A DNA stretch of 59,676 nt from contig JAVCCL010000008.1 of the NCBI GenBank assembly GCA_030765505.1, forward strand, positions 1 to 59,676. The letters are read 5' to 3'. Positions 40,231 through 59,676 of the stretch are shown piece after piece (the stretch's first letter is position 1; each line of letters begins with the position of its first letter). The stretch comes from Candidatus Kaelpia imicola (GTDB lineage: Bacteria; Omnitrophota; Gorgyraeia; Kaelpiales; Kaelpiaceae). Position numbers and translations under genes: made by a program. Under the pieces are notes generated by a model that did no database searches, was not told the origin of the DNA, and saw only the letters and a program-made list of their open reading frames with translations.

Positions 40231-41545
40231 CTATCTCTCCAATTAAACTATTATCAACTATTTCGGCTATTTTAACATCTTTTATACTTCCAACCAAACC
40301 CTTTCCTTTTACTTTAATAGAATGGTTTTCAGAAGACTTGCCTATAGTATAGCCTCTTTTATCATCAGCCTCAAAAAGAACTTCACAAAATCTGCCTACT
40401 AAACCTCTTTTCTTTTTTAAAGCTATCTCTCCCTGGACCTGAAGCAAAATATTATTCCTATCTCTCTTATCCTGATCCGAAACAGTATCGACAAAACCAG
40501 AGGCCTTGGTTTCAGGCCGCGAAGAATACTTAAATATGAATGCAAAATCAAAGCCTATTCTCTTTAAAGCAGAGAGTGTCTTCTTGAAGTCTCTTCTCTC
40601 TTCACCCGGAAAACCAACAATGATATCCGTCGTAATTGCTCCTTGAGGATTAAATTTTCTATAGCATTTAACCAGATTGAGATAGTCGGAAAGAGTATAA
40701 TTTCTATTCATAAGTTTTAAAATCTTATCGCTTCCAGATTGAAGAGGAAGATGTAAATGATTACATACGCTTTTTAAATCTCTCATCGCCTTGAAAAGAT
40801 CGAAACCTGCATCTTTTGGATGCGAAGTCATAAAGCAGACTCTCTCGATTCCAGTCTTATCTATTTTCTCTAATAACCTTACAAAACCGCCATTCTTATA
40901 GGAGTTGACATTCTGCCCCAAAAGAGTTATCTCTTTATAACCTCTATCTTTTAAAGAACTGACTTCATTTACTATCTCCTCTGCAGGTATAGAGCGCTCT
41001 CTACCCCTTGTGTGGGGCACAATACAGTAACTACAGAAATTATCACAACCCTCCATAATAGAGACAAAAGCACTTAGAGATCTTTTCCTGTAGTCTCTCT
41101 CCTTGTAAAAGCACTTTAAGCCAACCTGCTTACCTACTGCTTTAATTCTCTCACCCTTTAAAACCCTATCTATATTTTCAATCAACTCATCCTCCTGAGA
41201 AGGCCCGAAGACCCCGTCAAGATGGCTATATCTCTTGAGAAGCTCTTCGCCGCAAACCTCTGCAGTACATCCGGTCAGAACAATCTTAAAATCCTTCTCT
41301 TTTTTAAGTTTTCTTAAGCTTCCTAAAAAAGATATCGCACGGTGCTCAGCATGATAGCGTACAGAGCAGGTATTTATGACAATAAGATTAGCATCCTCTG
41401 CTCTCTCTGTTAAAGACCATCCAGATGCAATAAGCTGGCCTAGCATCCATTCGGAATCCCGCTCATTCATCTGGCAGCCGAAAGTCCGCAAGTAGAGACG
41501 CTTTCCGGAATTATCGCAACCCTTTTGTTTTCCGTTAGTTGGCAC
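40223..41545 (-). CDS. miaB: tRNA-2-methylthio-N6-dimethylallyladenosine synthase
   Basis: 440 aa with TFGCQMNERDSE, the radical-SAM motif CDNFCSYC and a TRAM domain. The GTG start at 41545-41543 is preceded by AAAGGAGAGG 7 nt upstream. The gene is apparently full length. Confidence 0.9.
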   Translation of the reverse strand: MPTNGKQKGCDNSGKRLYLRTFGCQMNERDSEWMLGQLIASGWSLTERAEDANLIVINTCSVRYHAEHRAISFLGSLRKLKKEKDFKIVLTGCTAEVCGEELLKRYSHLDGVFGPSQEDELIENIDRVLKGERIKAVGKQVGLKCFYKERDYRKRSLSAFVSIMEGCDNFCSYCIVPHTRGRERSIPAEEIVNEVSSLKDRGYKEITLLGQNVNSYKNGGFVRLLEKIDKTGIERVCFMTSHPKDAGFDLFKAMRDLKSVCNHLHLPLQSGSDKILKLMNRNYTLSDYLNLVKCYRKFNPQGAITTDIIVGFPGEERRDFKKTLSALKRIGFDFAFIFKYSSRPETKASGFVDTVSDQDKRDRNNILLQVQGEIALKKKRGLVGRFCEVLFEADDKRGYTIGKSSENHSIKVKGKGLVGSIKDVKIAEIVDNSLIGEIVE

Positions 41546-43104
41546 TTTATATCCTCTCCTTTGTATAGCCCTTTAAAAGGCTGATAAAGCTCGAATTTCT
41601 TTATTCTCCTGTTCTCAACTGTTATGGATTTAAAGACCAGTCTTAACAGGCCTTTCTTTCCTGCAATATCCAATCCTGACTTTATTGCATCAAAATGGTC
41701 TATTACTGTCTGTAACAGCTTTCTGTATTCTTTGGATTTTTCCCGTTCAATAAGGCTGAATTCCAGTTTCTTTATCTTTAATTTCAGCTCCTTTTCTTCT
41801 TCCCTGAGCGGAAGAATCTGATTTTTAAAAGCTTCCATAGCCAGCAGGTTTTCTGAAAAAACTTTTCCAAGCCGCTCCTGCTTTGATAAATTTATGCTGA
41901 GTTTTGCTTTTATATCAGCTATTTTCTCTTTAACGTCTTCATCACAGGAAGACTCACTATCATTAATAATACCTCTTAACCTTGCCTCGTCAATATCTTC
42001 TGCAAAAATAGTTTCTATAATGGCGCAGACTACATTTTCAATATCATCTGCCCTGACATAGCCATTACTGCATTCGGTGTAATGCACAGACCTGCCGCAA
42101 CATCTGTAATATCTTCTTTTTGTTTTTACTTTTCTGCCCTCTCTTGAAGCAACGCTTAAACAGCCCCGAAACTTATGACCGCATTCTGCACAGACAAGAA
42201 TTCCGCTAAGAGGATACTCTTTGCTTCCTTTTCTGGAAGCTATCCCTTTTCTGTTTTGTTCAAGCTTTTTCTGGACAGCGTCAAAATCTTCCTGACAAAT
42301 TATCGCTTCATGCTTGCCTTTTGATACTACTATTTTTGAAGCATCATTCTTCATATACCTGTTGCCTCTCAGCGTTTTCTTTGTTTTGTCATAATGATGC
42401 ACGTTCCACACAAGCTTACCAAGATAAATCTGATTTTTAAGAATGTTGCCTACAAGTTTTGTCTGGAATCTGCCACCGCTTCTTGTTTTATACCTCTTAT
42501 TATATAAATAACCTGCTATCTGCGGAGTGCTCTGGCCTGAAAGATACATAAGATACATCATTTTAACAATGTCAGCCTCTTCTGGCACGACTTCAAGAAG
42601 TTTCTTTTCCTTATTATAATGGTATCCATAAGGGGAGTATCTTGCACCCTGCCAGTTTCCACGCTCAACACCTTTTATCATTCCGGGAAAAACTCTCTCA
42701 ATAATCCTGTCTCTTTCAAACTGGGCTACTGTGCCTAACATACTAAGAGCCATCTTTCCGGCAGCGCTGACAGTATCAAACGACTCTGTAGCTGACTTAA
42801 ACCCTATGCCTTTATTATCAAGGTCTTCAACCAGATTAAGCATAAGGCGGTTATTTCTCGCAAACCTGTCAATCTTATAAACAAGCACCATATCAAACTT
42901 TTTAAGATTTACATCTCTTAGCAGTTTTTTTAAGGCAGGTCTTTCAAGAGTGTAGCCAGAATAGCCATCATCCACATAAACATTATAGACATCATAGCTC
43001 TCACGCTTGGCATAATTGACAAGAAACTCTCTCTGAACTTCAAGAGAAGTTCCTTCTCTTGCCTGATCTTCTGTTGAAACTCTTGTATAAACTGCTATTT
43101 TCAT
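41467..43104 (-). CDS. Large serine recombinase (integrase)
   Basis: The N-terminal resolvase domain reads MKIAVYTRVSTEDQ...DRFARN. A recombinase domain, a zinc ribbon (CAECGH...YYRCCG...C) and a long coiled coil follow. The track ORF starts at 43128, but MKIAVY at 43104 is the family-typical start. The 3' end overlaps miaB by 79 nt. Confidence 0.9.
   Translation of the reverse strand: MKIAVYTRVSTEDQAREGTSLEVQREFLVNYAKRESYDVYNVYVDDGYSGYTLERPALKKLLRDVNLKKFDMVLVYKIDRFARNNRLMLNLVEDLDNKGIGFKSATESFDTVSAAGKMALSMLGTVAQFERDRIIERVFPGMIKGVERGNWQGARYSPYGYHYNKEKKLLEVVPEEADIVKMMYLMYLSGQSTPQIAGYLYNKRYKTRSGGRFQTKLVGNILKNQIYLGKLVWNVHHYDKTKKTLRGNRYMKNDASKIVVSKGKHEAIICQEDFDAVQKKLEQNRKGIASRKGSKEYPLSGILVCAECGHKFRGCLSVASREGRKVKTKRRYYRCCGRSVHYTECSNGYVRADDIENVVCAIIETIFAEDIDEARLRGIINDSESSCDEDVKEKIADIKAKLSINLSKQERLGKVFSENLLAMEAFKNQILPLREEEKELKLKIKKLEFSLIEREKSKEYRKLLQTVIDHFDAIKSGLDIAGKKGLLRLVFKSITVENRRIKKFELYQPFKGLYKGEDIKCQLTENKRVAIIPESVSTCGLSAAR
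41541..41551. repeat. Left copy of 11-nt direct repeat GGCACTTTATA (candidate att core); contains the miaB GTG start
   Basis: It matches 59098-59108 exactly, and the flanks diverge on both sides. Confidence 0.4.
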
Positions 43105-43106
43105 AA

Positions 43107-43286
43107 TCACCTGAATGTATTGCGCCACTTTATTATTTTTTTAATATCAGAATCGGTAAAAACAGGGTAATTCCTGTAATCTCTTTTAGGCTCAACCCAG
43201 CCCTTTTTAATCCAGTAACGCACTGTCTGCTCATGGACACCGAGCTTTTGTGCGGCTTTGGGTACATTGTAGATTTGCTTATCCAT
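43107..43286 (-). CDS. MerR/excisionase-type HTH protein (candidate recombination directionality factor or regulator)
   Basis: A 59-aa ORF below the track cutoff reads MDKQIYNVPKAAQKLGVHEQTVRYWIKKGWVEPKRDYRNYPVFTDSDIKKIIKWRNTFR. Its stop lies 2 nt before the recombinase ATG. Confidence 0.6.
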   Translation of the reverse strand: MDKQIYNVPKAAQKLGVHEQTVRYWIKKGWVEPKRDYRNYPVFTDSDIKKIIKWRNTFR

Positions 43287-43308: not shown

Positions 43309-43629
43309 TTAGGTTTTGTCAAGCTGTTTCTTCCCTTTCACTTTCCTCTCAAGAAGTTCATTAAGATACATCATGTCTGCTTGCAAAACAATTTCAAGAA
43401 CTGTCGAAAGCCTCAAAAATTCTTCACTATTTTCTTTTATAATAAAGGTGTTTTTCTTATTTGGCTTTCTTGCAATTCTCCATATCTTTTCTTTATCTAT
43501 CCCATAGATATCCTTACTCTCAGCCCACTCATCAAAAACAGACAGCAGATCCCTGTCGGAAAACTTGTTAAAGTAATCCTTAAATGCCTTTGCCTGTATT
43601 TTGTAGAATTCTTTTTTCTTCATTTTCAA
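43309..43629 (-). CDS. Hypothetical protein
   Basis: A 106-aa ORF co-directional with its neighbours. I recognise no motif. Confidence 0.5.
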   Translation of the reverse strand: MKMKKKEFYKIQAKAFKDYFNKFSDRDLLSVFDEWAESKDIYGIDKEKIWRIARKPNKKNTFIIKENSEEFLRLSTVLEIVLQADMMYLNELLERKVKGKKQLDKT

Positions 43630-43673: not shown

Positions 43674-44258
43674 TCATGGCGCAACCCTTGTCCTTATAGT
43701 CTGTAACGCCTTCATGTGAAGCTTAATAATGTCTTCATATCCAGCCGCAACAAGCTGTTCAGCACTTTTAATTCTAGCTCCCTCTGGCATGCTACTATGA
43801 AACTTGGCTAAATATTGCTGCATCAATAAAACTTTGTCATCCCAAGACATCACGTCCACATGCTCAACTAAAATCCAAGAAATATATTTTTCTTCTTGTT
43901 CTTTTTTCATATGTTCATAAATTGCATCAAGAACTGCTTTCATTCCACCGCCAACACCGGTTGAAGCTACCATGTAAGCGCCTTCTAATCCGCCAATCTG
44001 AGAAAATGACCTCTCTATTATTCCCCTCACGTTACTTAAAGCCAGCCACTCTGGCATAAGAATATCTCCCCCGACAGTAATCTGAAACTGTTGCTGGTAA
44101 AACCGTGTAGCTTCTGCCATCATTTCATCAAAAGTAGAAGGTATGCGATTTTGCATATTATACTCGTCTCTTCCTATATCGTGATACATACTAACTTCTT
44201 TCGCGATATTTCTTTCATCCAATAATCGCAAAATCATATTTAAATTTGCTTTACCCAT
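43674..44258 (-). CDS. Hypothetical protein, last gene of the E2/JAB/E1/ATPase cassette
   Basis: 194 aa with a strong SD (GAGGGAGG) and a start 12 nt after the ATPase stop. It looks largely helical, and I recognise no motif. Confidence 0.55.
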   Translation of the reverse strand: MGKANLNMILRLLDERNIAKEVSMYHDIGRDEYNMQNRIPSTFDEMMAEATRFYQQQFQITVGGDILMPEWLALSNVRGIIERSFSQIGGLEGAYMVASTGVGGGMKAVLDAIYEHMKKEQEEKYISWILVEHVDVMSWDDKVLLMQQYLAKFHSSMPEGARIKSAEQLVAAGYEDIIKLHMKALQTIRTRVAP

Positions 44259-44270
44259 AATTGACCTCCC

Positions 44271-46685
44271 TCAAATTTCATCATACAAGTTTTCATTATC
44301 TGATGGTCTTTCTATTGCCCTTCGCACTGTTGCAATATTTTTCTTAAGCGACACGCAATATTTTTCTCTTGTTAAACTATCAATTTCTTCGCTAAAACCA
44401 TTGCCAGTTATCTTGTTTGGCTCAGGGGTGGATATGTTTATTATTTCATTTCCTTTTTTTACAAAAGCCTTCCCAACACCTTTTCTCATAAAATCATTGA
44501 TTTCAACCTCTCCAAAAAATTCTTTAAACAAATTCTGGCTATCATCCCAGTCCAAGTCTAACGCCACTACTGTCTGTACATTTCCAAATGCGGTTTTAAT
44601 TGATTCAGCCATCATCTCTTTTTGCTGAAAACCAAATATAAGCCTTAAGTTAAACTTCCTACACTCCCTCAAAGAGTCTTCAAATGCTTTCTTGTTGACC
44701 GAGAGACGCTGCGCTTCGTCAATATAAAGGTTAAACCCGACTCTTTGGGAAGGAACAATATCCTGCCTTGAAAGGGCTGCATGAAAAAAAGAGCAGTATA
44801 TAATCGAACCAAGGATGTTAGAACAGTTTGATCCAAGCAGACCTGCCGGAAAATAGGCAAGAAAGATTTTTTTATTGTCGATTATGTTTCTGAAATTTAG
44901 CCTATTATCTCGCTGGGAAAAAATCCTATATATTCTCTCCTGCAAAAGAAACTTTGAGAGCTTGCTAACTACCCTCTGTAATGTTGAATTAGGTATTTTT
45001 TCAAAATCATGCCAAAACATCTGTATTTCTTTATTCTCTATAATAGGAGCAACTGACTGTCTCAACTTGTACCCCTCTTTTGATTTAGATAAAAGACCCC
45101 TCACATCAGTTAATGTGAGATTTCCTTTTAATAAGGTGTATAGGACAGGCATAAGCGTTGCCTCAATCTGCGAACCCCAGTCTTTAGCAGAATACAGCCC
45201 CTTAATTGCATCCAGTAAATCATTGACTTTTTTGCCAGCATCTTCATTTTTACCCAATGAAAAGAAATTATGAGATATTATGAAATCCTTGTCGCATGGA
45301 TTGTAATAGCAAACGTCTCTAACCCTCTCTTTAGGAATTTGTTTTTTAATGCGTTCAATTGCATCTCCATGATAATCAATGTACCCTGCGCCTTCGCCAT
45401 TATTAATATCAGCCAAAAACATATTTTCCATAAGTATTGATTTTCCTGAGCCAGTAATGCCGCCAATAATTGTCCCTTTGTTTCTCAAATGAGTAGGTTG
45501 AAAAACAGGAACTTTTTTTCCTGCAAAGTCGTTATAGCCGAGTAAAACTCCATCTCTTGAGGTTTGTTCTATAGCCTTAAAACCAACAGCCTTATCAAGA
45601 GAAAAATCTTTTCTTTCCATAATTTCCTTAGAGCCGGAATTGCATAAAGCAGATAACTCTGTTGAGCTAAGCAACATTCCATTCCTGTAAATCAAAGAAG
45701 TTACTATCATTTCTATTATTTTTTTATTTTCCATCGTTCTTAAATAATCGGCTTTTGCCAAATAATTAAATTCTCTTTTCCCGTATTGAAAACCCGCGAT
45801 TGGAAGGCTCAGACTATCTAAAACTCCTCTTATATTTTCATTTCTGCAACAAGCTCCTATGCGGATGCTTACGCAAAACAAAGGACTGTCTAGTTTCTTT
45901 CTGGCCTCTTTATAGTAATCAGAGCCAAACCCTGCATGGCTGATTAAATTCTGCTGTAAACTACCGAATTGGCCTGCCTGCAATTCTGCCTCAGTAAGAT
46001 TAATTATGTTTTCCCGCCAATCATGCGTTACTCTTTTAAAAGTAACTTGGTAAAACCCAAACTCTTGTTTTAGCTCACTCAAGGCAGAATAAATCGGCAT
46101 TAAAGGAGAAATTTTTATCCCTTCATAACCAGATAAACTTTTCCAATATGGCGCTATGGGATAGAAATCCCGAATATCAAAGGTATGATTTATAGTGTTA
46201 GTTTGCTGAAGAATTTGTAAAAAATAATTTTCTTCATTAACGTCAATTTCAATATTGGAAAATTTAGATTTGATCGCGCTCTTCACAGGTTTTTCATCAG
46301 CTCTATTTATGCTTATTTGACAGCTTATCCTTTCCTTATTTCCAATCAGCAAAAATTCAATTGGATTTTTTATAATGCTTAATTCTCTCAATAATGTTTC
46401 AAATTCTATCCATTGAATTTCATCTTTTGGCGAAAACCACAACCGCAAGTAAGCTTTCTGGGAATTTTCTGTAAATCTTTCAGGCGTGATACAGACATTA
46501 GTAGTGCCTTCTCTTAAAAAGCTTTTAAGTTCGTAAGGCTGAAAAGGGGCTTCCAAGCATACGGGCTCTGGATAGATTGTTACATCCCTGCCTTTTAAGG
46601 ATTCAAGCTCAAAAGAAGAGCGCAACTCACCCTGCAAGGCGCTTATGACCATAGACTGTTCTATCGGGCCTAGATTTTCTCTCAT
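44271..46685 (-). CDS. HerA-FtsK/TraD(VirD4)-type P-loop ATPase with unknown ~400-aa N-terminal region
   Basis: 804 aa with Walker A GGITGSGKS (45438-45464), Walker B LYIDEAQRL and RKFNLRLIFGFQQ. No TM helices are seen. Confidence 0.8.
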   Translation of the reverse strand: MRENLGPIEQSMVISALQGELRSSFELESLKGRDVTIYPEPVCLEAPFQPYELKSFLREGTTNVCITPERFTENSQKAYLRLWFSPKDEIQWIEFETLLRELSIIKNPIEFLLIGNKERISCQISINRADEKPVKSAIKSKFSNIEIDVNEENYFLQILQQTNTINHTFDIRDFYPIAPYWKSLSGYEGIKISPLMPIYSALSELKQEFGFYQVTFKRVTHDWRENIINLTEAELQAGQFGSLQQNLISHAGFGSDYYKEARKKLDSPLFCVSIRIGACCRNENIRGVLDSLSLPIAGFQYGKREFNYLAKADYLRTMENKKIIEMIVTSLIYRNGMLLSSTELSALCNSGSKEIMERKDFSLDKAVGFKAIEQTSRDGVLLGYNDFAGKKVPVFQPTHLRNKGTIIGGITGSGKSILMENMFLADINNGEGAGYIDYHGDAIERIKKQIPKERVRDVCYYNPCDKDFIISHNFFSLGKNEDAGKKVNDLLDAIKGLYSAKDWGSQIEATLMPVLYTLLKGNLTLTDVRGLLSKSKEGYKLRQSVAPIIENKEIQMFWHDFEKIPNSTLQRVVSKLSKFLLQERIYRIFSQRDNRLNFRNIIDNKKIFLAYFPAGLLGSNCSNILGSIIYCSFFHAALSRQDIVPSQRVGFNLYIDEAQRLSVNKKAFEDSLRECRKFNLRLIFGFQQKEMMAESIKTAFGNVQTVVALDLDWDDSQNLFKEFFGEVEINDFMRKGVGKAFVKKGNEIINISTPEPNKITGNGFSEEIDSLTREKYCVSLKKNIATVRRAIERPSDNENLYDEI

Positions 46686-46688
46686 GGT

Positions 46689-47786
46689 TTATATCCTTCC
46701 GCATATTACGCAATCTGGATTTTTCTCAATTTTTGCCACTAACTTCTGCGCAAAATCTTCAAAAACCCACGTATCGGGTTTTGTTGAAAACCACAGGGCA
46801 TCACCCTTATTGTCAAACTGCTTAAAATACTGGCTTATATCTTCGCCTGCCAGAATTACCATAGCGAGTTTTGTTGCAATGTCGCTGATAATGTTTACAT
46901 CTATTGATAAGGCAGGGACACTTCGCTGTTCGTTCTCATCAACACCATATTGCTTGTTTGTAGAACGAAGATTGATTGGGCCACCCTCGTTACCACTATT
47001 CCCTTTAAAACACATATAGCAAGGGTCCTGTTTTTTGCCGGAAATATAGATGATTTGTCCAGATTCTGCTTTATCCGCCAATCCTATGTAAAGAGCCGGA
47101 ATGCCTTTATTATAGGAGAGCCAATTAACATCTCGCCTGCTGTCTTCTGTGTCAGTTGCTATAACCATAAGGGCTGGTTTCCATTCATCTGTGAATTTGT
47201 CGAAAAAAGTGATGTCTTTGCAAAAATCATAAGCAAAAGCTTTGACTTCTGCATTTGGAATATTACTCATAACTGCATCTTTAAAGGCTATTGTTTTTAA
47301 CCGGCCTGCCAATAACTCCGGCATTTGCTGAATACCCCACCTGTAAGGGTTAGCAATATCCAAATAATCAGGATCGGTTATGGCTATTTCAATACCATGC
47401 TTGGCTAATTCATACCCAACCCTTGAATTAACAGAACCGCAGGAAACAAGAAAAGCTTTTTTAGCTTTTACTTTTTGAGATAGTATCTCAGAACGGTTAC
47501 GGGCATTGTAGTCCTGCATATTAAAAACTTCTACTTGGCTGATCTCCTTTCCATCAATAAAACACTTTAATCCATTGCCATTAACAAGCAATTCAACTCC
47601 TTTATTTGTAACAGCTTCTTTATACCACCTGCCTACTTCATGCCAGAAATTGTGCTTTAGGGTAGTCTTAAAGCTAACTATTTGGATAAGATTTTCTTCC
47701 TGTATTTCCCTGCCAAACAGCAGACCTGTAATACAGTCACTCCCTTTTATTTCTTGTACTGCCTTTTCATCAATTACAATCTTCAT
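46689..47786 (-). CDS. ThiF/MoeB-type E1-like adenylyltransferase with N-terminal extension
   Basis: 365 aa with FLVSCGSVNSRVGYELAKHGIEIAITDPDYLDIANPYRW, VIATDTEDSRR and two Cys pairs (CYMC, CVIC). It has a GGAGGT SD and overlaps the JAB stop by 17 nt. Confidence 0.8.
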   Translation of the reverse strand: MKIVIDEKAVQEIKGSDCITGLLFGREIQEENLIQIVSFKTTLKHNFWHEVGRWYKEAVTNKGVELLVNGNGLKCFIDGKEISQVEVFNMQDYNARNRSEILSQKVKAKKAFLVSCGSVNSRVGYELAKHGIEIAITDPDYLDIANPYRWGIQQMPELLAGRLKTIAFKDAVMSNIPNAEVKAFAYDFCKDITFFDKFTDEWKPALMVIATDTEDSRRDVNWLSYNKGIPALYIGLADKAESGQIIYISGKKQDPCYMCFKGNSGNEGGPINLRSTNKQYGVDENEQRSVPALSIDVNIISDIATKLAMVILAGEDISQYFKQFDNKGDALWFSTKPDTWVFEDFAQKLVAKIEKNPDCVICGRI

Positions 47787-48399
47787 CTTCTTTACCTCCT
47801 GTTTTCTGTAGCATTAATTCCTCAATAGTTTCTTCCTTTAATACAGGCAAGTCAGCCTGATAAACATATTTTCTTCCAAGCAAAGCTCTGATGATGCTGT
47901 CTTTTCCATTAATTACAATTAATTCTGGCTTGGTAAAAGAGAAGTCATCCGTAGCTTTTCTATGTATAAAAAAAGGACAATACTCAAGAGTGCTTTCATT
48001 GAATGTAGCTATAATAATGCTGAGTTTTTCCAAATAGCTATGTATAGGGTCGAGCAAAATTTTCTTGCACGTATTCTCATCCAATGGCGACATAGCAGGC
48101 AAATAAGAAGGATGGAGATGATGATCGCCAAGATACTGTAGGGGGAATTTTGTATTAGGATATTTCTTGCATATAGCCTGAAACACCTCGCATTGATATG
48201 TATCATCAGTTGCAAGATAACTCGGGTTTTGAACAGCATTTGACCCTGTCCGCAAAGCGTATAGGATTATACCTACACCACCCCCCATTGAAAAACCAAT
48301 AAGCGAACCTCCGCATTCGATTTCTCTGCTTTTGTTTTTAATAGCTTCTTCTTTTATTACCTCTAAAGCTGTCTTTGTGATAAACATGATATTTTTCAT
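47770..48399 (-). CDS. JAB/MPN+ (JAMM) metallopeptidase
   Basis: 209 aa with the Glu in REIECGGSLIG and HLHPSYLPAMSPLD, which is HxHx7Sx2D (48079-48123). Confidence 0.85.
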   Translation of the reverse strand: MKNIMFITKTALEVIKEEAIKNKSREIECGGSLIGFSMGGGVGIILYALRTGSNAVQNPSYLATDDTYQCEVFQAICKKYPNTKFPLQYLGDHHLHPSYLPAMSPLDENTCKKILLDPIHSYLEKLSIIIATFNESTLEYCPFFIHRKATDDFSFTKPELIVINGKDSIIRALLGRKYVYQADLPVLKEETIEELMLQKTGGKEDEDCN

Positions 48400-48435
48400 G
48401 GCTACTCCTTTGCTTTATTTTCTAAAATTTACTCC

Positions 48436-48825
48436 TTACCATGTTTCTCCAGTTTGTAGAAAATTCTCGTATAAAATGAGCCATTGAATAACCCAGCCAA
48501 TTACTGTACAAATCGTATCATCATGATTGAAATCATTATGCTCAAGGCATAGCTCCTGGTCTTCCCCATAAAGATGAGGCACATCTGAGCAAAAATCAAT
48601 ATGCGGTACGTATACTTTTATTCTGTTTCCATTAGGATAGCCATAGGGATAAGCCGCAACAACATAATAAGATTTTCTTAATTTGTCGCTTGGGCCAATA
48701 TATCCAGCCACAAATGCAGTATCATCCTCAAGTAAACCAAACTTCATTTGCGGAAAATCAATAGCCAGAAGCTCCATCTCAGATTGAAGCCTTTGCCTGC
48801 CTCTATTTGTGTCATACCATTGCAT
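48436..48825 (-). CDS. E2/UBC-like protein (prokaryotic E2 family)
   Basis: 129 aa with YPYGYPNGNRIKVYVPHIDFCSDVPHLYGEDQELCLEH. This mirrors the UBC core (YP..pP.v.F....HPN...G.iCL). The candidate catalytic Cys codon is at 48547-48549. Confidence 0.7.
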   Translation of the reverse strand: MQWYDTNRGRQRLQSEMELLAIDFPQMKFGLLEDDTAFVAGYIGPSDKLRKSYYVVAAYPYGYPNGNRIKVYVPHIDFCSDVPHLYGEDQELCLEHNDFNHDDTICTVIGWVIQWLILYENFLQTGETW

Positions 48826-48853
48826 CCTTATCTCTCCTTTAATTTATAATGAT

Positions 48854-48883
48854 AAAAGTAAGGCAGGGGCTGTCCTTACTTTT
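48854..48883. terminator. Stem-loop between the small ORF and the E2 gene (possible attenuator or terminator)
   Basis: AAAAGTAAGG (48854-48863) pairs with CCTTACTTTT (48874-48883) around a 10-nt loop. The T-rich run is strongest on the + strand (TTTTATTTTTT). On the - strand it is followed by UUUUAUCAUU. Confidence 0.35.
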
Positions 48884-48895
48884 ATTTTTTATAAT

Positions 48896-49036
48896 TTACC
48901 TACATCCCCACTCATGTTGCTTGATAGGAGCGCCGGAATTTTTGTTGTCTTCTGTCTTCGGCTTAACCGTGCTACCAGCCGCTACCATAGGAACCCCTTT
49001 CTTAATCGCCTCTTTTATCTGTTCTCTTCTGTCCAA
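48896..49036 (-). CDS. Candidate 46-codon small ORF upstream of the E2 gene
   Basis: AGGAGG (49050-49045) lies 8 nt before TTG 49036-49034. It translates to (M)DRREQIKEAIKKGVPMVAAGSTVKPKTEDNKNSGAPIKQHEWGCR. The SD directly follows the stop of the relaxase-like gene. An alternative ATG start is at codon 17. Confidence 0.3.
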   Translation of the reverse strand: MDRREQIKEAIKKGVPMVAAGSTVKPKTEDNKNSGAPIKQHEWGCR

Positions 49037-49052
49037 TGTTATCACCTCCTCA

Positions 49053-49871
49053 TTATAGATTTGCACCCTTCACTATGGCTTGCAATTCTGCTCTCTGGGG
49101 TACATGCCAGATGTTTGAGAGAATATTCTCAGGTATTATTTTTTCTGAGGTAAGCCATAGCATAGCCCCTGCATTTTTATTCAAATCTAATATATTTTTC
49201 AATCTGGTTGCAGATGGTAAAATAAAAAGAACTCTAAAGCCCTTAAATGGAAAGTTAAAAACTTCTCTAAAATGGATAAATTTCTGATTAACTAAATATT
49301 CGCTATAAGCTGAAATCTTTGTAATAATATCTTTATTCCCAGAACTCCTCTGAATAACCTGCGTGCCCATATCCTGCTCGCCAAAGAGCAAACTCTTGCC
49401 TTTTTTATTTCTAAGCACAATCATAAAATCAGGGATTATGTCTGAGGATATTGCCGGCAAATTTTCTTTTAAATCAGTTGCTTTATGCGCAACAGAGAAA
49501 CTTTCTACAGAGTAATCTTTGGTTTTGTCGCAGGCAGAACTGAAACATAAAATACAGGTGTTTACTTGTAAGTCATGCTCAACAATAAGATTCGTAGATA
49601 GCTTGAAAAAGCTAGGCTTAAAGCCTAAAAAGCGTCTGATTGCGTTTTCCCTCTGCTTATTTAAATAAAAAACTTGCTCTAATCTTCCTTGTGCATAGGG
49701 ACTTGGCTTATCAAAAGACAAGAGATAATTATTCTTCTTTAGAATATTCAATCTCCTTCTGGCTACCTTTATGCTGTCGTTAAATATAAAGAAAGAAACC
49801 ATGCTTGTTGATAAAAAGCTTAGCTTTTCAAGCCAGTAAAATAACTGAATATCGCGTGGAGTAATCCTCAT
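49053..49871 (-). CDS. Replication-relaxation (Replic_Relax) family protein
   Basis: 272 aa with ITPRDIQLFYWLEKLSFLSTSMV...ARRRLNILKKNNYL (wHTH). It also has EHDLQVN, IIPDFMIV and LFGEQDMGT, the nuclease-like core typical of the family. Confidence 0.72.
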   Translation of the reverse strand: MRITPRDIQLFYWLEKLSFLSTSMVSFFIFNDSIKVARRRLNILKKNNYLLSFDKPSPYAQGRLEQVFYLNKQRENAIRRFLGFKPSFFKLSTNLIVEHDLQVNTCILCFSSACDKTKDYSVESFSVAHKATDLKENLPAISSDIIPDFMIVLRNKKGKSLLFGEQDMGTQVIQRSSGNKDIITKISAYSEYLVNQKFIHFREVFNFPFKGFRVLFILPSATRLKNILDLNKNAGAMLWLTSEKIIPENILSNIWHVPQRAELQAIVKGANL

Positions 49872-52169: not shown

Positions 52170-54923
52170 TTGGATGATACTATGGCAAATACTGGAAAAT
52201 TTAGACCTAAAATAATAAATAAGTGCATGACTAGGCAGGAATATGAACAATTGCAAAAAATAGGAAAGCGCATCCGTTCGCATCCAACAGCTCCGCTTAC
52301 TCAACAAAATCTCTATTTTACTATGTTAGATACTGAATATAAAGACGCAAGAAAAGAAGGAAAAGGACAAAGGCAAATTCCCCATAAAACAAATTGGGTT
52401 TTTGACAAAATGAATAAACAGGCAAAAAAAGAAGGAAAAGAAGCTTACAAAGGCGGGCATGAAGCTCTGGGCATACTCAGACATCGAACAAACCATGAAC
52501 TGCTGTATTTAGATAGAGAATATCCAAAAAATATTTATATAGGTAATACGTGCGGAGATTTCGTTTTCCTCACAGACCCAGAAGATATACAAAAGGCATG
52601 GGAAATAGATAGCTTCCCTAATGATAAATATGTTAAAGGAAAAAGAGGGAAAGCTAGAATTGAAGTTAACCCACTGTTAGAAACAGAGATTGAAAAACCA
52701 ACCATCCTTACACAAAACAATAGTGAATATATACGGTTTTTCAAAAAAACAGAAGACCTTGATTATAAATGCTTAACAGATTTCCCTGAGGGGTTTGGAA
52801 TACAAGAACCCTCTAATGGTTTCTTTAAAGACCTATATTCTGTTCCTATTAAGGAACAGGATGACCTTAAAAATTTTATCAAAAAAAATAAGAATGTTTT
52901 AATAACAGGCAAGTCAAAAGTCGGCAAAACAAGATTAGTCTTTGACGTATTAAGAAAACTAAAAAATTGTTACGTTCTCGCATTAAAGTCTTCGACATTT
53001 AGGAATGTTGATACCCTTAAAATCTCTGATTATTTCAACCAAAAAAGGAAAAAGTTGATTTGGTTTATTGATAATATAGATTATTACCCATGCATTCCGC
53101 TGCAAGACCCAATATGGGATATTTATGAAAAGCTATACAATATAAATAAAAATACAATAATCATTGCCACGCTTCGGTCTGATGAAACAAAGCCCAAATC
53201 TCGACTTTTGGAACATAGCCGTATCGAACCTTTAGAATTCAGAAATGAAATAGAAAATACTGAAGCAGATGATTTTATGAATCACTATTACAACGGTAAG
53301 CAACTTCCACTTCATTATGATAAGACATTTTGGTCTATCATGTTTGACATAGAATATATGAAAGATATTTACAACAACAGTAGCAAGGTTGATGAGAACA
53401 GTAGAAGTATTATGAAAAGCTTAAAGCTTTTACAAATAATTTTACCAATTGTTAAATACACACTTCTAAAATTAACATTTGAAAATATATATTATGCATT
53501 TCAAGGAACAACTGTTTTTGACGATGGTATAAGAAAATTAGAAAAACTAAATTTTCTGAAGATAGATAAAACAAAAAATGCTGTTTCCTCTCAAGAACCT
53601 TATCTTAAAGAAATTGTCTACTATCCAGACATGGATTTGGATATGAAAAATTTGATTAAAATTTTGACAAAGCATAAAAAGTTTGTCGAATTATTGTGTT
53701 TAGGCACTTATTATTATTCTAACAAGAATTTCAATGAGTGTAGTAAGTGCAATCAACTTGTTGCTAATAGTTCTTCTTCAAATGAATCAAAATCTGTTGC
53801 ATATTGCAACTGGGGTGTTATTCTTTCCGAAATAGCTGAGTTACAGGACAGTAAGGAAGAGCAAAAAAAATATTACGATAAGGCATGCAAGAAATACGAA
53901 AAAGCTATTGATTATAAAAAGGATAACGCAAAAGCATATTCCAGCTGGGGTAATGCTCTTTCTCAAATAGCTGAATTACAGGACAGTAAGGAAGAGCAAA
54001 TGAAGTACTATAATGACGCATCTAATAAATACGAAAAATCTATTGAGTATAAAAAAGATTGTGCAGAAACATATTGCAACTGGGGTGCTATATTTTTCAA
54101 AATAGCTAAACTACAGGACAGTAAGAAAGAACAAAAGGAATATTACGATAAGGCATGCAAGAAATACGAAAAAGCTATTGACTGCGAAAAAGATAACGCA
54201 AGAGCATATTACAACTGGGGTTTTACTCTTTCCGAAATAGCTGAATTACAGGACAGCAAGGAAGAGCAAATGAAGTACTATAATGACGCATCTAATAAAT
54301 ACGAAAAATCTATTGAGCATAAAAAAGATTGTGCAGAAACATATTGCAACTGGGGTGTTACTCTTTCCGAAATAGCTGAATTACAGGACAGCAAGGAAAA
54401 GCAAATGGAGTACTACAATAACGCATGTAAGAAATATAAAAAAGCTATTAAGTATAAAAAGGATTATGCAGAAGCATATTCCAACTGGGGTGCTACAGTT
54501 TTCAAAATAGCTGAATTACAGAACAGCAAGGAAGAACAAGAAAAACGGTATAGAACAATATGTGCTTTATTATCTGAAGCCTATATATTGTTCGTGCTAC
54601 AAAACAAAAGAAATTTAACTTATACTCCTATTTACATAATTAAAAATATTAGCAAAAAAATCAAAAATCCAATTCATATAGCAATAATATCAATTTTCGA
54701 GCTAGGTCTAAAAGTAAGTTCAAAAAATAAAAAAAGTTTCTCAAACAAAGAGTTAGATTTTTTGCAAGAAATCAAAGGAATATCAAGTGCGAGTGACATC
54801 GTTATTGATGCCATCTTAGAAAATAAAAAACCTGATGTTGCTGAAATTCCTAATGATAGCCGTCTTTTGAGAACCGCTGTTTATATAGCAAATAAAATTA
54901 TTGCTATAAAAAATAATAAATAA
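52170..54923 (+). CDS. STAND-like P-loop NTPase with unknown N-terminal domain and C-terminal TPR-like repeats
   Basis: 917 aa with Walker A ITGKSKVGKT (52908-52931), Walker B-like KLIWFIDNID, and six 45-aa helical repeats of the form aY.NWG..L.eIAeLQDSKEEQ.kYY. The start codon is uncertain (TTG 52170 or ATG 52182). Confidence 0.8.
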   Translation: MDDTMANTGKFRPKIINKCMTRQEYEQLQKIGKRIRSHPTAPLTQQNLYFTMLDTEYKDARKEGKGQRQIPHKTNWVFDKMNKQAKKEGKEAYKGGHEALGILRHRTNHELLYLDREYPKNIYIGNTCGDFVFLTDPEDIQKAWEIDSFPNDKYVKGKRGKARIEVNPLLETEIEKPTILTQNNSEYIRFFKKTEDLDYKCLTDFPEGFGIQEPSNGFFKDLYSVPIKEQDDLKNFIKKNKNVLITGKSKVGKTRLVFDVLRKLKNCYVLALKSSTFRNVDTLKISDYFNQKRKKLIWFIDNIDYYPCIPLQDPIWDIYEKLYNINKNTIIIATLRSDETKPKSRLLEHSRIEPLEFRNEIENTEADDFMNHYYNGKQLPLHYDKTFWSIMFDIEYMKDIYNNSSKVDENSRSIMKSLKLLQIILPIVKYTLLKLTFENIYYAFQGTTVFDDGIRKLEKLNFLKIDKTKNAVSSQEPYLKEIVYYPDMDLDMKNLIKILTKHKKFVELLCLGTYYYSNKNFNECSKCNQLVANSSSSNESKSVAYCNWGVILSEIAELQDSKEEQKKYYDKACKKYEKAIDYKKDNAKAYSSWGNALSQIAELQDSKEEQMKYYNDASNKYEKSIEYKKDCAETYCNWGAIFFKIAKLQDSKKEQKEYYDKACKKYEKAIDCEKDNARAYYNWGFTLSEIAELQDSKEEQMKYYNDASNKYEKSIEHKKDCAETYCNWGVTLSEIAELQDSKEKQMEYYNNACKKYKKAIKYKKDYAEAYSNWGATVFKIAELQNSKEEQEKRYRTICALLSEAYILFVLQNKRNLTYTPIYIIKNISKKIKNPIHIAIISIFELGLKVSSKNKKSFSNKELDFLQEIKGISSASDIVIDAILENKKPDVAEIPNDSRLLRTAVYIANKIIAIKNNK
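53799..54545 (+). repeat. In-frame tandem repeat, 135-nt unit with 270-nt higher-order period (6 units)
   Basis: Units start at 53799, 53934, 54069, 54204, 54339 and 54474. Units 2 and 4 share about 100 nt with only two substitutions by my reading. Confidence 0.85.
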
Positions 54924-55973: not shown

Positions 55974-56413
55974 TTTTCTACCTCACCTTTGTCGTCTTTA
56001 GCCAGAGGGCAAACAACAATTACAGTATCATTTATCTGAATAAACATTTCGTTGTTGTTTTCAGAACTTACTATCAACTCGCCCTCATCACCCAACAGCT
56101 TTACAACCTCGCCAAGCTGTTTCATGTTAAATCTAACAAACTCTTTGCCATTAAATCTGCTGTTAGTCACTATAAGCTTTGTTATAGTGTCATCAGATAC
56201 AGTTATTGTATCTTCATTAACAGCTATACCGTACTTCTCTGCCAATTCGTTGTCTTTAAGCAGATTGTCTGCCGAATACTTCCTAACCCATTTAAGCAGG
56301 GGTATGTTGTTTAATAAACTTTTAACCCATGCCATGTCTTTTTTTGTTTTTAGTTCTGTTTTTTGCTCCATTTTTTTTATTCCTCCATTAGTGTCATAGT
56401 TTTTCAATGTCAC
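55970..56413 (-). CDS. Hypothetical protein
   Basis: A 147-aa ORF. An alternative start, MEQKT at 56371, has a GGAGG SD. Confidence 0.5.
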   Translation of the reverse strand: MTLKNYDTNGGIKKMEQKTELKTKKDMAWVKSLLNNIPLLKWVRKYSADNLLKDNELAEKYGIAVNEDTITVSDDTITKLIVTNSRFNGKEFVRFNMKQLGEVVKLLGDEGELIVSSENNNEMFIQINDTVIVVCPLAKDDKGEVEK

Positions 56414-57372
56414 TTTGACACTTCTTTTTTTATTCTAAAAAATGTCCTTCTGCTCTTGCCTGTTCTCTGCCAAAAATGAACAGCCTGTTCAGAAACAGAT
56501 AAATCTGATTTCATTAATTTCAAAACTATTTCCTTATCTTCGTCTTTTTCAACAGTTGCCTTAAAAAGTTCTTTTGCGTTTGCCTTATCTTCTTTTACAA
56601 ACGCTATGGCTTTTTTCAGCAATCTAAAATTAAAGTTTCTGGTTGCCTCGCTTGTCTCTTCCTTAATAAGCTTTAAGCACTCCTGCTTTTGCTTCATGCT
56701 TAAATCTTTCCTGCTGTCAATTAACTTCCCAATAATCTCTATTTTTTGCTCAAAGCTCAATTTAAACTCATACGAAACTGTCCTGCTAATCATGGCACTT
56801 ACGCCTATATCCTGCTGGTTTGGTATCTTGTTGCATAGAATTATCAGCTTTGCCTTAAACTCAAAAATATCAGGCAAACCCTCTGCCTTTTCGCTTTTTG
56901 TATTGTATTGGATAAGCCTCTTGCCCCCGCTTTCCCACAAAGCCCCTTTAAGTATTGAAGTGGCAACAGGATTGCCAAAAATGCCCTCTATATCGTCAAG
57001 TATCAAAAGCTTTTTGTTTCTTGCCCTATACAATATCTCATAAATAGACAGAGGCGTTGAATATCCGTTATAATATTCGTAATCATCAGGCTCTAAAATT
57101 TCCCTCACTCTATTTATCGCAAGAACTGTCTTGCCTAATCCGCCCTCACCATAAAAAATAAGTGCGTTATATTCCTTTGTATTCAATGTCACTTTGATTA
57201 AATTCTTTGGGATATTAAATTCTGGAATATCCACATAGTTAGCAAATTTCAGCTTTTTCCATTCATCAATTATATGCCTTTGCTTTGAGTCGGGCTTTTC
57301 AGGCTTTACGCTGATAAATTTACTTGCCTCTGTAAGTGTCTTTTTCAGGTTTTGCAATTCGTGGGGTTTCAT
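56410..57372 (-). CDS. AAA+-type P-loop ATPase with C-terminal HTH
   Basis: 320 aa with Walker A GEGGLGKT (57127-57150), Walker B LLILDDIEG and sensor-like LIILCN. The C-terminal GKSRRTFFRIKKE is an HTH-like tail. Confidence 0.7.
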   Translation of the reverse strand: MKPHELQNLKKTLTEASKFISVKPEKPDSKQRHIIDEWKKLKFANYVDIPEFNIPKNLIKVTLNTKEYNALIFYGEGGLGKTVLAINRVREILEPDDYEYYNGYSTPLSIYEILYRARNKKLLILDDIEGIFGNPVATSILKGALWESGGKRLIQYNTKSEKAEGLPDIFEFKAKLIILCNKIPNQQDIGVSAMISRTVSYEFKLSFEQKIEIIGKLIDSRKDLSMKQKQECLKLIKEETSEATRNFNFRLLKKAIAFVKEDKANAKELFKATVEKDEDKEIVLKLMKSDLSVSEQAVHFWQRTGKSRRTFFRIKKEVSK

Positions 57373-57509: not shown

Positions 57510-57878
57510 TTAATATTCACTTGTCAAAAGAAGAACGCCGTTAATGAAATATAGTTTTATCTCTTCCGTTGGAAAATCAGTATATTCTATTTCCTGTTTT
57601 ACAATTATCGGCGTATCGCTGTCCTCTTGCATTTGTAAAACTGCCAATTTGTCTTCATTAACTTTAAGCGTCCATATCTGAAATCCTTTCTCTTTCAGCT
57701 TATGCTGATAACTACCGATAGCGTCAAGCAACCAAAAACAGTTTGCTTTTTCTGCCAAAAACTTAACCCCGTCTGTATAATTAAATTCTAACCAATGGCG
57801 ATAATAATGCTCTGTCCCTGTAAAATTGGTTAATTCCTCTTTTAATGTCCTGCTCTCATTTTTTTGTTGGTATCCCAT
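57510..57878 (-). CDS. DUF6876-like protein (family common on conjugative/mobilisable elements)
   Basis: 122 aa with LTNFTGTEHYYRHWL..YTDGVKFLAEKANCFWLLDAI, which matches my memory of the DUF6876 N-terminal signature. Confidence 0.55.
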   Translation of the reverse strand: MGYQQKNESRTLKEELTNFTGTEHYYRHWLEFNYTDGVKFLAEKANCFWLLDAIGSYQHKLKEKGFQIWTLKVNEDKLAVLQMQEDSDTPIIVKQEIEYTDFPTEEIKLYFINGVLLLTSEY

Positions 57879-59546: not shown

Positions 59547-59676
59547 TTACCACCCCTGTGCCTTTCTGATTGTTTCAATCTCAAGTGCTTTTCTTGGCTC
59601 AAAATGTAAATCCCTATCAACTTCCACAAAAGACACCTTTAACTCGCACAGTTCTTTAAGGCTGAAATACCCCCAC
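59547..59676 (-). CDS. Partial CDS (C-terminal 42 codons; the start lies right of the window)
   Basis: The frame is open from the window edge and reads ...GYFSLKELCELKVSFVEVDRDLHFEPRKALEIETIRKAQGW, ending at TAA 59547-59549. Confidence 0.4.
   Translation of the reverse strand, partial: WGYFSLKELCELKVSFVEVDRDLHFEPRKALEIETIRKAQGW

Follow-up and report, generated by a model that had tools for sequence, protein, structure and literature searches.

Several bacterial systems use relatives of the ubiquitin-activating (E1) and ubiquitin-conjugating (E2) enzymes together with peptidases. In the type II class of cyclic-oligonucleotide-based antiphage signalling systems (CBASS), the E1 site of Cap2 engages nothing but the very end of a disordered tail that is not ubiquitin-like, and Cap3 cuts exactly behind the last residue (10.1101/2022.03.31.486616); a 2025 review describes Cap2 as the only known system that activates a substrate lacking the β-grasp fold. 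BilABCD operons are ordered ubiquitin-like protein (Ubl), E2, deubiquitinase, E1, and BilC trims the Ubl by the single residue that lies beyond its reactive Gly (PMC10557695), while Bub operons encode a DUF6527 serine protease (BubE) and a β-grasp Ubl (PMC11601603). Here we describe a locus of Candidatus Kaelpia imicola (contig JAVCCL010000008.1, assembly GCA_030765505.1) in which genes for an E2, a JAB peptidase and an E1 (the triad) follow a 46-codon open reading frame (ORF), within the 59,676-nt contig stretch that is called the window throughout. It is probable that these four genes (the cassette) constitute a conjugation system related to Cap2 and Cap3, that its substrate is a free peptide of 44 residues, and that it is carried on an integrative mobilisable element, whose backbone comprises a Replic_Relax gene, an 804-aa ATPase gene and the gene for a 194-aa protein. 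Related loci are cited by L-numbers.

Conjugation-type enzymes of the cassette

The E2-like conjugating enzyme (129 aa; 48436..48825, minus strand) is of the CBASS type, as it is matched over its full length by the PADLOC CBASS E2 models (best E = 4e-14), and relatives that are 74-81% identical to it carry the E2-CBASS family PF26395 in precomputed Pfam annotation. Its catalytic residue, Cys93, lies within PHLY...ELCLEH, and H84, E91, C93 and H96 are invariant in the alignment of homologues; the E2 profile also weakly matches a solved chain, 8hsb_B, which its depositors labelled 'Type VI secretion protein' and 'E2'. The JAB/JAMM metallopeptidase (209 aa; 47770..48399, minus strand) is Cap3-like by the PADLOC CBASS JAB models (best E = 2.8e-10), with weak matches to the NCBIfam Cap3 model and to TIGR02256. 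Its JAMM residues were aligned to those of an Rpn11-like protein, and Glu28, His94, His96, Ser104 and Asp107, the last four in the pattern HxHx7Sx2D, are invariant.

The third enzyme, an E1-like adenylating protein (365 aa; 46689..47786, minus strand), has an N-terminal domain of ~95 aa, behind which comes an adenylation domain of the ThiF/MoeB type that carries two CxxC pairs, and is the only member of the triad that the Pfam library recognises (ThiF, 5e-13). It is matched by the PADLOC CBASS 'E1-E2' models (best 6.5e-17), which are 426-431 positions long, and R96/N97, D138/D140, R149, K164, D212 and both CxxC pairs are invariant in the homologue alignment. With an AlphaFold2 (AF2) model of predicted local distance difference test score (pLDDT) 68, the top Foldseek matches of this protein were UBA5, Cap2 (7to3), the SUMO E1, PaaA and MccB, MoeB being a neighbour as well, and its profile matched SAE2 (1e-7) and Cap2 (1e-5) among sequences of the Protein Data Bank (PDB). 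Single-sequence phmmer searches of PDB chains with E1, E2 and JAB returned nothing useful; weak or moderate matches came from the profiles alone, and in the profile searches of PDB sequences with these three proteins no chain was named as a Bil protein. A separate proposal, that the N-terminal domain of E1 is a degenerate JAB/MPN domain, was rejected: the domain begins like one, and a profile-profile comparison with the JAB alignment gave nothing.

By profile, then, the three enzymes are of the Cap2/Cap3 type, each being covered for most of its length by the PADLOC models, and their presence together is genuine, with chance excluded. An earlier sequence-only reading of the window had already proposed this triad, which the profile searches now support for the E2, JAB and ThiF proteins alike. 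The catalytic motifs that it had listed are all present and invariant across the aligned homologues, including the candidate E2 Cys codon at 48547-48549 (that of Cys93, in ELCLEH), a JAMM signature it had called complete, and the ThiF/MoeB motifs and two CxxC pairs of E1. It had placed these genes in a series of five minus-strand ORFs (E2, JAB, E1, ATPase and 194-aa protein) separated by junctions of 36, -17, 3 and 12 nt, and recomputation reproduced the five sets of coordinates and four junctions exactly. The boundaries that it drew for the unit hold for those five ORFs but not at the 5' end, where the 46-codon ORF and a hairpin had been overlooked.

Relatives of the cassette carry up to two additional modules with a catalytically inactive E2 fold, similar to ubiquitin E2 variant (UEV) or RWD domains. 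One is fused to the C-terminus of JAB (L015 10641-11585; L007 942-1901) and the other is encoded by a gene for a UEV-like protein of 158-176 aa that follows E1 (L015 12663-13145; L007 3101-3631); in addition, L018 2400-2783 encodes a Cys-to-Ser paralogue of E2, and in L010 (10569-12686) JAB, UEV and E1 are fused into one protein of 705 aa. These modules could be readers or adaptors. The window copy is without any of them, through clean deletions: its JAB is missing the C-terminal UEV/RWD-like domain of ~105 aa that most relatives have, and BLAST reveals the deletion as in-frame, with residues 1-191 aligning to 4-191 of the L015 protein and residues 190-209 to its residues 296-314.

A constrained peptide gene and a hairpin upstream of E2

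Both the peptide ORF and the hairpin lie in the 227-nt stretch that separates E2 from the relaxase-like gene. The ORF (48896..49036, minus strand), a candidate precursor of a modifier peptide, has 46 codons between a TTG start at 49036 and a TAA stop, is preceded by the Shine-Dalgarno sequence GAGGAGG, and has its start codon 17 nt beyond the stop of the Replic_Relax gene. The full product read from the window is LDRREQIKEAIKKGVPMVAAGSTVKPKTEDNKNSGAPIKQHEWGCR, in which the segment LDRREQIKEAIKKGVPMVAAGSTVKPKTEDNKNSGAPIKQHEWG, ending at Gly44 (codon 48905-48907), is followed by the 2-residue tail CR. The earlier statement that the locus has no recognisable Ubl gene remains correct in that there is no β-grasp ORF in or beside the cassette; what it missed is this small ORF, which ends in HEWG plus a variable tail and precedes E2.

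Homologues of the peptide are encoded directly 5' of E2 in L018, L008, L010-L014, L015-L017, L007/L009 and L099 (L009, the sole return of the metagenome scan, is a duplicate of L007), and the ORF recurs in every relative with an intact 5' flank. They form three lineages ~50% apart, the identity to the window peptide being ~58% for L007/L009 and ~51% for L099. All 8 distinct sequences end in H-(E/T)-W-G, so that Gly44 and the motif H-x-W-G are invariant, and the tail beyond the Gly, 1-5 residues long, is variable in both size and sequence (CR, LWECR, M, SCMGM, L, NILQS or C). A variable tail after an invariant Gly is the signature of a modifier precursor that is trimmed by a JAB peptidase. Selection on the 44 core codons was estimated by the pairwise Nei-Gojobori method, which gave 0.02-0.09 nonsynonymous substitutions per site (dN) with at least 1 synonymous substitution per site (dS; saturated). 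Because dN/dS is 0.008-0.093 with saturated synonymous sites, the ORF is taken to be translated and strongly constrained.

The mature peptide is basic (isoelectric point 9.6), has a mass of 4.86 kDa and contains seven lysines, so one peptide could conceivably be attached to another to form chains. Judging from its length, 44 residues are too short for a β-grasp fold, and the peptide is probably a miniature protein tag without the ubiquitin fold. The peptide-E2-JAB-E1 family is rare: searches of GTDB representative genomes and IMG/VR with the E1 and JAB alignments found no members beyond the loci cited here, and a degenerate DNA pattern for I[KR][KR]GVPMVA had 7 chance matches in genome contigs, none of them with HEWG. 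The identical peptide sequence is present in the NCBI nr database (P0054).

Between the peptide stop codon and the Shine-Dalgarno sequence of E2 is a stem-loop with a short U-run (48853..48884, minus strand), whose stem pairs AAAAGUAAGG-CAG with CUG-CCUUACUUUU. Its folding energy is -17.2 kcal/mol (z = -6.2), and a hairpin follows the peptide stop in 6/6 loci folded (z from -3.9 to -6.5). The stem of L007 differs in sequence at the equivalent site, which indicates that it is the structure and not the sequence that is conserved; in L099, which was left unfolded, an inverted repeat can be seen by eye at the same site. A comparison of the element with Rfam, hairpin included, gave no match. Only ~30 nt separate it from the E2 start. 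The hairpin probably serves as a leaky terminator or as a 3' element that stabilises the transcript, and the succession of peptide gene, hairpin and enzyme genes fits a product that is needed in excess over the enzymes.

A terminator-like hairpin after a small ORF is also what is found in attenuators, and it is conceivable that the ORF is a regulatory leader peptide, or unrelated to the enzymes, and that the triad acts on a ThiS/MoaD-type or other substrate of the host. The use of endogenous ThiS/MoaD proteins has been proposed for operons that lack a Ubl (Iyer et al., 2006; PMC1779556). This explanation is considered unlikely, since a dN/dS of 0.01-0.09 over the whole peptide is unlike that of a mere leader ORF, the position of the stop codon relative to the hairpin varies between loci while that of the Gly is fixed, and the unit that moves between hosts and elements has four genes, the peptide gene among them.

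The arrangement of a precursor gene, a hairpin and enzyme genes is likewise the typical layout of a cluster for a ribosomally synthesised and post-translationally modified peptide (RiPP). The small ORF could then be a RiPP-like or scaffold peptide whose C-terminus is modified by the ThiF-like enzyme, as MccB acts on MccA or PaaA on PaaP, with JAB as a maturation protease; PaaA and MccB are indeed among the structural neighbours of E1, and the conserved 44 residues can be read as a leader peptide that ends in Gly. Such a role is very unlikely, as an E2 with an invariant Cys is always present, where E1-dependent RiPP pathways usually have genes for export or immunity and do without an E2, UEV-like E2-fold modules accompany it in relatives, and the enzymes match CBASS conjugation profiles rather than RiPP ones. 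The residues after Gly44, which can be one M, L or C alone or as many as five residues, are incompatible with a defined product made from them, and an exporter or immunity gene is not a recurrent feature of the loci examined.

If the peptide is instead the substrate of the triad, a sequence of events can be proposed by analogy with Cap2/Cap3 and BilABCD. The 46-residue precursor would be made in excess, with the hairpin letting only part of the transcripts continue into the enzyme genes, and JAB would cut it after Gly44 to remove the variable tail of 1-5 residues. The exposed Gly44 carboxylate would be adenylated by E1 and the acyl group passed, via an E1 cysteine or not, to Cys93 of E2, which would attach the lysine-rich 44-residue peptide to lysines of target proteins and possibly also to the peptide itself; JAB could in addition reverse the modification. 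By this analogy the peptide would be the counterpart, encoded on its own, of the disordered tail at the C-terminus of CD-NTases (cGAS/DncV-like nucleotidyltransferases) that is activated by Cap2. It is a serious though tentatively held possibility that the 44-residue peptide is in this way a bona fide ubiquitin-like modifier, trimmed by JAB after Trp-Gly, activated by E1, passed on by E2 and attached to lysines, which would make it the smallest tag of its kind known and just a second class of non-Ubl substrate for E1 and E2 enzymes, serving in conflict or in the control of DNA transfer on integrative mobile elements of Omnitrophota-like bacteria.

Cassette and element backbone as separate modules

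All relatives keep the window's order of candidate modifier, E2, JAB and E1, and it is these four genes that form the conserved unit, found in two unrelated element backbones. The peptide, E2, JAB and E1 of the window are 74-85% identical to their counterparts in L015 and L010, where the cassette lies next to genes for proteins of 407 aa (HerA/DUF87), 241/248 aa and 158/160 aa, none of which shows BLAST similarity to the 804-aa or 194-aa proteins; HTH_17 and tyrosine integrase genes come after the cassette of L010, and in L099 the gene upstream of it lies on the opposite strand. The backbone of the window is shared by L007/L009, with the order relaxase remnant, peptide, E2, JAB, E1, 176-aa protein, ATPase, 187-aa protein and HTH_17. 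A decayed copy of the L007-type locus, interrupted by an insertion sequence, is present at L006 4150-10670, in which an insertion takes the place of the peptide gene and of the initial 10 codons of E2, and in which JAB and the ATPase are broken by many frameshifts that may be errors of long-read assembly.

The pair of ATPase and 194-aa protein is found without the triad as well. In L004 the Replic_Relax gene is followed directly by an ATPase gene whose product is 51% identical to that of the window, and in L002/L003 an ATPase of 47% identity is followed by a 189-aa homologue (42%) of the 194-aa protein, with a short upstream gene fragment that matches no cassette protein. Just upstream of Replic_Relax and the ATPase, L004 (419-5920), the relative with the ATPase nearest to that of the window, also encodes a PP2C phosphatase, an FHA protein and a Ser/Thr kinase-FHA protein, with no E2, JAB or E1, so this operon carries another reversible protein-modification set.

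Given that the cassette and the ATPase pair each occur alone, it is doubtful that the ATPase is a fixed partner of the triad. The ATPase, the 194-aa protein and Replic_Relax are a separate backbone module, which hosts the cassette recurrently at the same site and not obligatorily, and the association with the ATPase reflects where the cassette rides rather than a fixed five-gene system. The five-gene order described in the earlier reading does recur, in L007/L009 and in the decayed L006, but not as a fixed unit, and its view of the ATPase as the tightly coupled partner is contradicted by the pair without the triad (L004, L002/L003) and by the cassette without that ATPase (L010, L015).

The ATPase (804 aa; 44271..46685, minus strand) is, according to its AF2 model (pLDDT 73) and Foldseek, a soluble protein of the TrwB/VirD4/VirB4 class in the FtsK-HerA superfamily. 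An N-terminal α/β region of ~390 aa precedes the nucleotide-binding part, in which the Walker A (G409-S416) and Walker B (D656/E657) motifs, noted earlier from the sequence, are invariant in homologues. The C-terminal half superimposes on TrwB with a template-modelling (TM) score of 0.63-0.68 (root-mean-square deviation ~5 Å, ~410-425 aligned columns), and the full-length model matches TrwK/VirB4 with a Foldseek E of 8e-16. It resembles type IV coupling proteins in its TrwB-like nucleotide-binding domain with a helical insert, in its Walker motifs and in being encoded next to a relaxase-like gene; it differs from them in its ~390-aa soluble N-terminal region and in having no membrane anchor (hydropathy over 19 residues peaks at 1.25, which indicates no transmembrane segment), and it scores below the curated Pfam thresholds for this family (TrwB_AAD_bind, 15.1 bits against a cut-off of 20.5). 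It has few close homologues and no match in phage genomes. Distant homologues (P0006-P0037; 900-1060 aa, 20-26% identity) carry PF26449 together with TraG-D_C and T4SS-DNA_transf, and several of those that are named come from Candidatus Saccharibacteria, which suggests a shared family of soluble coupling-type ATPases in ultra-small bacteria.

Whether the ATPase or the 194-aa protein might be the functional partner of the triad, either as an effector or sensor that conjugation primes or restrains, as the earlier reading proposed for the ATPase, or as an E1 substrate through its C-terminus as in CBASS, and with no separate modifier, was considered in light of the packed operon (3 nt between E1 and the ATPase), the five-gene order in L007/L009 and L006, and the fact that in the other backbone the cassette is also beside a HerA-type ATPase. 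This arrangement is improbable. Against it stand the triad-less pairs of ATPase and 194-aa protein in L004 and L002/L003, the position of the cassette (74-85% identity) next to a 407-aa ATPase without BLAST similarity to the 804-aa one, and the presence of a dedicated, strongly constrained peptide with a C-terminal Gly. The ATPase ends, after a variable charged linker, in (L/V/F)(Y/F)DEI in 4/4 homologues (LYDEI in the window, from its last five codons at 44274-44288), a terminus in Ile and not in Gly or Ala; because the motif is also kept in the triad-less L004, it is better regarded as a docking motif than as an E1 substrate. The acidic motif may bind the 194-aa partner or the relaxase, and is reminiscent of the acidic C-terminal tail by which TraD docks TraM. 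The C-termini of the 194-aa proteins are not conserved. From these patterns of conservation both proteins were rejected as E1 substrates through their C-termini, and the 804-aa ATPase is assigned to the element backbone, not to the cassette.

The 194-aa protein (43674..44258, minus strand), of unknown fold, is the conserved partner downstream of the ATPase, being 42% identical to the product of the gene after the ATPase in L002/L003 and L007 and 43% in L006; it has no profile match in Pfam, NCBIfam, PADLOC or PHROGs. On the other side of the cassette, the relaxase/replication-like protein (49053..49871, minus strand) is assigned to Replic_Relax (PF13814; Pfam 2.1e-8) and matches the PHROG 'replication initiation by nicking' (1e-6), with 83% identity to its counterpart in L018 and 38% to that in L004.

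The integration module (41467..43286, minus strand) encodes a 59-aa MerR/HTH_17-type protein that is taken as excisionase-like (43107-43286, minus strand; MerR_1 and HTH_17 in Pfam) and a large serine recombinase (41467-43128, minus strand; Resolvase, Recombinase and Zn_ribbon_recom in Pfam), and abuts miaB, whose product was identified as MiaB by NCBIfam. The recombinase and miaB ORFs, as mechanically called, overlap by 79 nt (window 41467-41545), and therefore the element lies against the 5' end of miaB or is inserted there. The cassette lies, as had been read from the sequence, inside an integrative element between a relaxase-like gene and an integration module; the element is small, integrative and probably mobilisable, and the assembly appears to end inside it, at 59676. 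Further genes of the element encode a sigma-70 region-4 helix-turn-helix protein and a DUF2905 protein (Pfam and NCBIfam). At 52170-54923 (plus strand), in a stretch of the element with low GC content (31-33%), is the gene for a 917-aa STAND-type P-loop NTPase (nSTAND3/AAA) with a long array of near-identical tetratricopeptide repeats, which may act as a sensor of the defence type; nSTAND3 is matched again, weakly, at 56410-57372, and a DUF6876 protein (Pfam E = 3e-43) is encoded at 57510-57878. The product of a 106-aa ORF at 43309-43629 is not similar to that of the gene at the same position in L002. By its LeuS sequence the host lies near Omnitrophota metagenome-assembled genomes, the identity being 84% and 81% to two that are labelled Planctomycetia and 71% to Candidatus Saelkia tenebricola.

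Comparison with described systems and biological role

Of the systems described, type II CBASS shares with the cassette an E1 and E2 of the Cap2 type and a JAB of the Cap3 type, as judged by profile, and the proposed use of a flexible-tail substrate that ends in Gly. It differs in that the window cassette has neither a cyclase nor a cyclic-nucleotide effector, the peptide has its own gene, the order is modifier-E2-JAB-E1, and extra inactive E2-fold modules are present in relatives. Among the element ORFs scanned with Pfam, NCBIfam and PADLOC there is no CD-NTase, in agreement with the sequence-only reading; the precomputed Pfam lists of L007, L008, L010, L015, L018 and L099 contain no nucleotidyltransferase families, and cyclic-oligonucleotide effector domains (SAVED, STING, patatin or transmembrane) are absent from the window element and from the flanks of the cassettes in relatives.

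Separate E1 and E2 proteins had also been put forward as an argument against CBASS, which does not hold: when E1 was used as a tblastn query, the plasmid records of lowest E included one from Arthrobacter with a CBASS-like operon that has a separate ThiF E1. In this operon (Arthrobacter sp. FW305-BF8, L107 3946-8619) a nucleotidyltransferase-domain protein, a 198-aa hypothetical protein, the 436-aa E1, a JAB and a SAVED protein are encoded in this order. The first of them has a Pro/Ala-rich C-terminal tail, ...TVKDTPQG, and the 198-aa protein aligns only weakly to the E2 family.

BilABCD has the same gene order, separate E1, E2 and JAB proteins, a precursor extension after the Gly that is removed by JAB, and no separate effector, but here the candidate modifier has 44 residues, too few for a β-grasp fold, the E1 is small, with a single adenylation domain and no CYS domain, unlike the multidomain E1 of Bil, and the E2 has C93-x-E-H in place of the CEHH pattern C-x5-E-x-H-x4-H. 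Pup and UBact offer another parallel, in being short tags that lack a β-grasp fold, are probably largely disordered and are attached through the C-terminus. Pup depends on the glutamine-synthetase-like ligases PafA and Dop and has a C-terminal Glu or Gln, whereas the window encodes E1, E2 and JAB enzymes and a peptide in which the C-terminal residue would be Gly. PRTRC systems consist of a ParB-related protein, a ThiF protein and proteins A to F, and no PRTRC model was matched in the NCBIfam scan of window proteins; for Bub/6E, the Pfam scan of proteins from the window and its relatives revealed no DUF6527. Membership of PRTRC, Bub or Pup was consequently rejected for want of supporting matches.

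The locus therefore fits neither type II CBASS, for lack of a cyclase, nor Bil, for lack of a β-grasp gene and because of its small single-domain E1, as had been judged from the sequence, and the earlier statement that its architecture is not that of a named system stands, each family considered having defining features that are absent here. In the literature searched, no peptide modifier is described for such E1/E2/JAB enzymes. The locus could also be what is left, no longer functional, of a type II CBASS or Bil operon after loss of the cyclase or Ubl, given that its enzymes are CBASS-like, that the window copy has lost its UEV-like modules, and that L006 is clearly decayed and interrupted. 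Such decay is extremely improbable for a locus with four intact ORFs in the window, every catalytic residue kept and a peptide gene under strong purifying selection, and no cyclase or Ubl Pfam family is found among the genes called in cassette loci.

The proposal of a Cap2/Cap3-related system with a free peptide as substrate draws on the enzyme profiles, the Arthrobacter operon with its separate E1, the position and constraint of the peptide gene, the H-x-W-G terminus with its variable tail, the hairpin, the Bil-like gene order and the modularity of the cassette. Several observations weigh against it. The confidence of the E1 model is moderate (pLDDT 68), and a Cap2-type catalytic Cys is not evident in the E1 loop where it would be expected (255-295), a low-confidence region that holds only a CxxC pair. 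The peptide family is tiny, a full HMM search having found three 50%-identity clusters among 1.84 billion representative proteins; the window cassette may be a reduced or less active version, for want of UEV-like modules; and in three lineages (window/L018, L007 and L006) the cassette occupies one insertion site in the backbone with the 804-aa ATPase, which makes a functional link to the transfer genes conceivable.

As to the role of the cassette, there is a low-confidence leaning towards a self-contained conflict module, either anti-phage or inter-element, which like Bil would have conjugation itself as its effect. Its enzymes are related to those of defence systems, it moves between unrelated backbones, and in the HerA-type loci and L099 it has an upstream intergenic region of its own. 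Nearby genes of the conflict type encode TIR and SLATT proteins in L007, RelA_SpoT-LSDAT and NUDIX proteins in L015, and the STAND NTPase in the window. The main alternative is control of the element's own transfer proteins, for which, besides the single insertion site, one can cite the spacing in the window (peptide gene 17 nt after the relaxase stop, ATPase 3 nt after E1) and the kinase/phosphatase/FHA set in the equivalent operon of L004.

If the peptide is the substrate of these enzymes, the cassette would be a compact, four-gene system for protein tagging. It would also mean that the chemistry of E1, E2 and JAB enzymes needs no ubiquitin fold, which would bear on the evolution of ubiquitin-like tagging.

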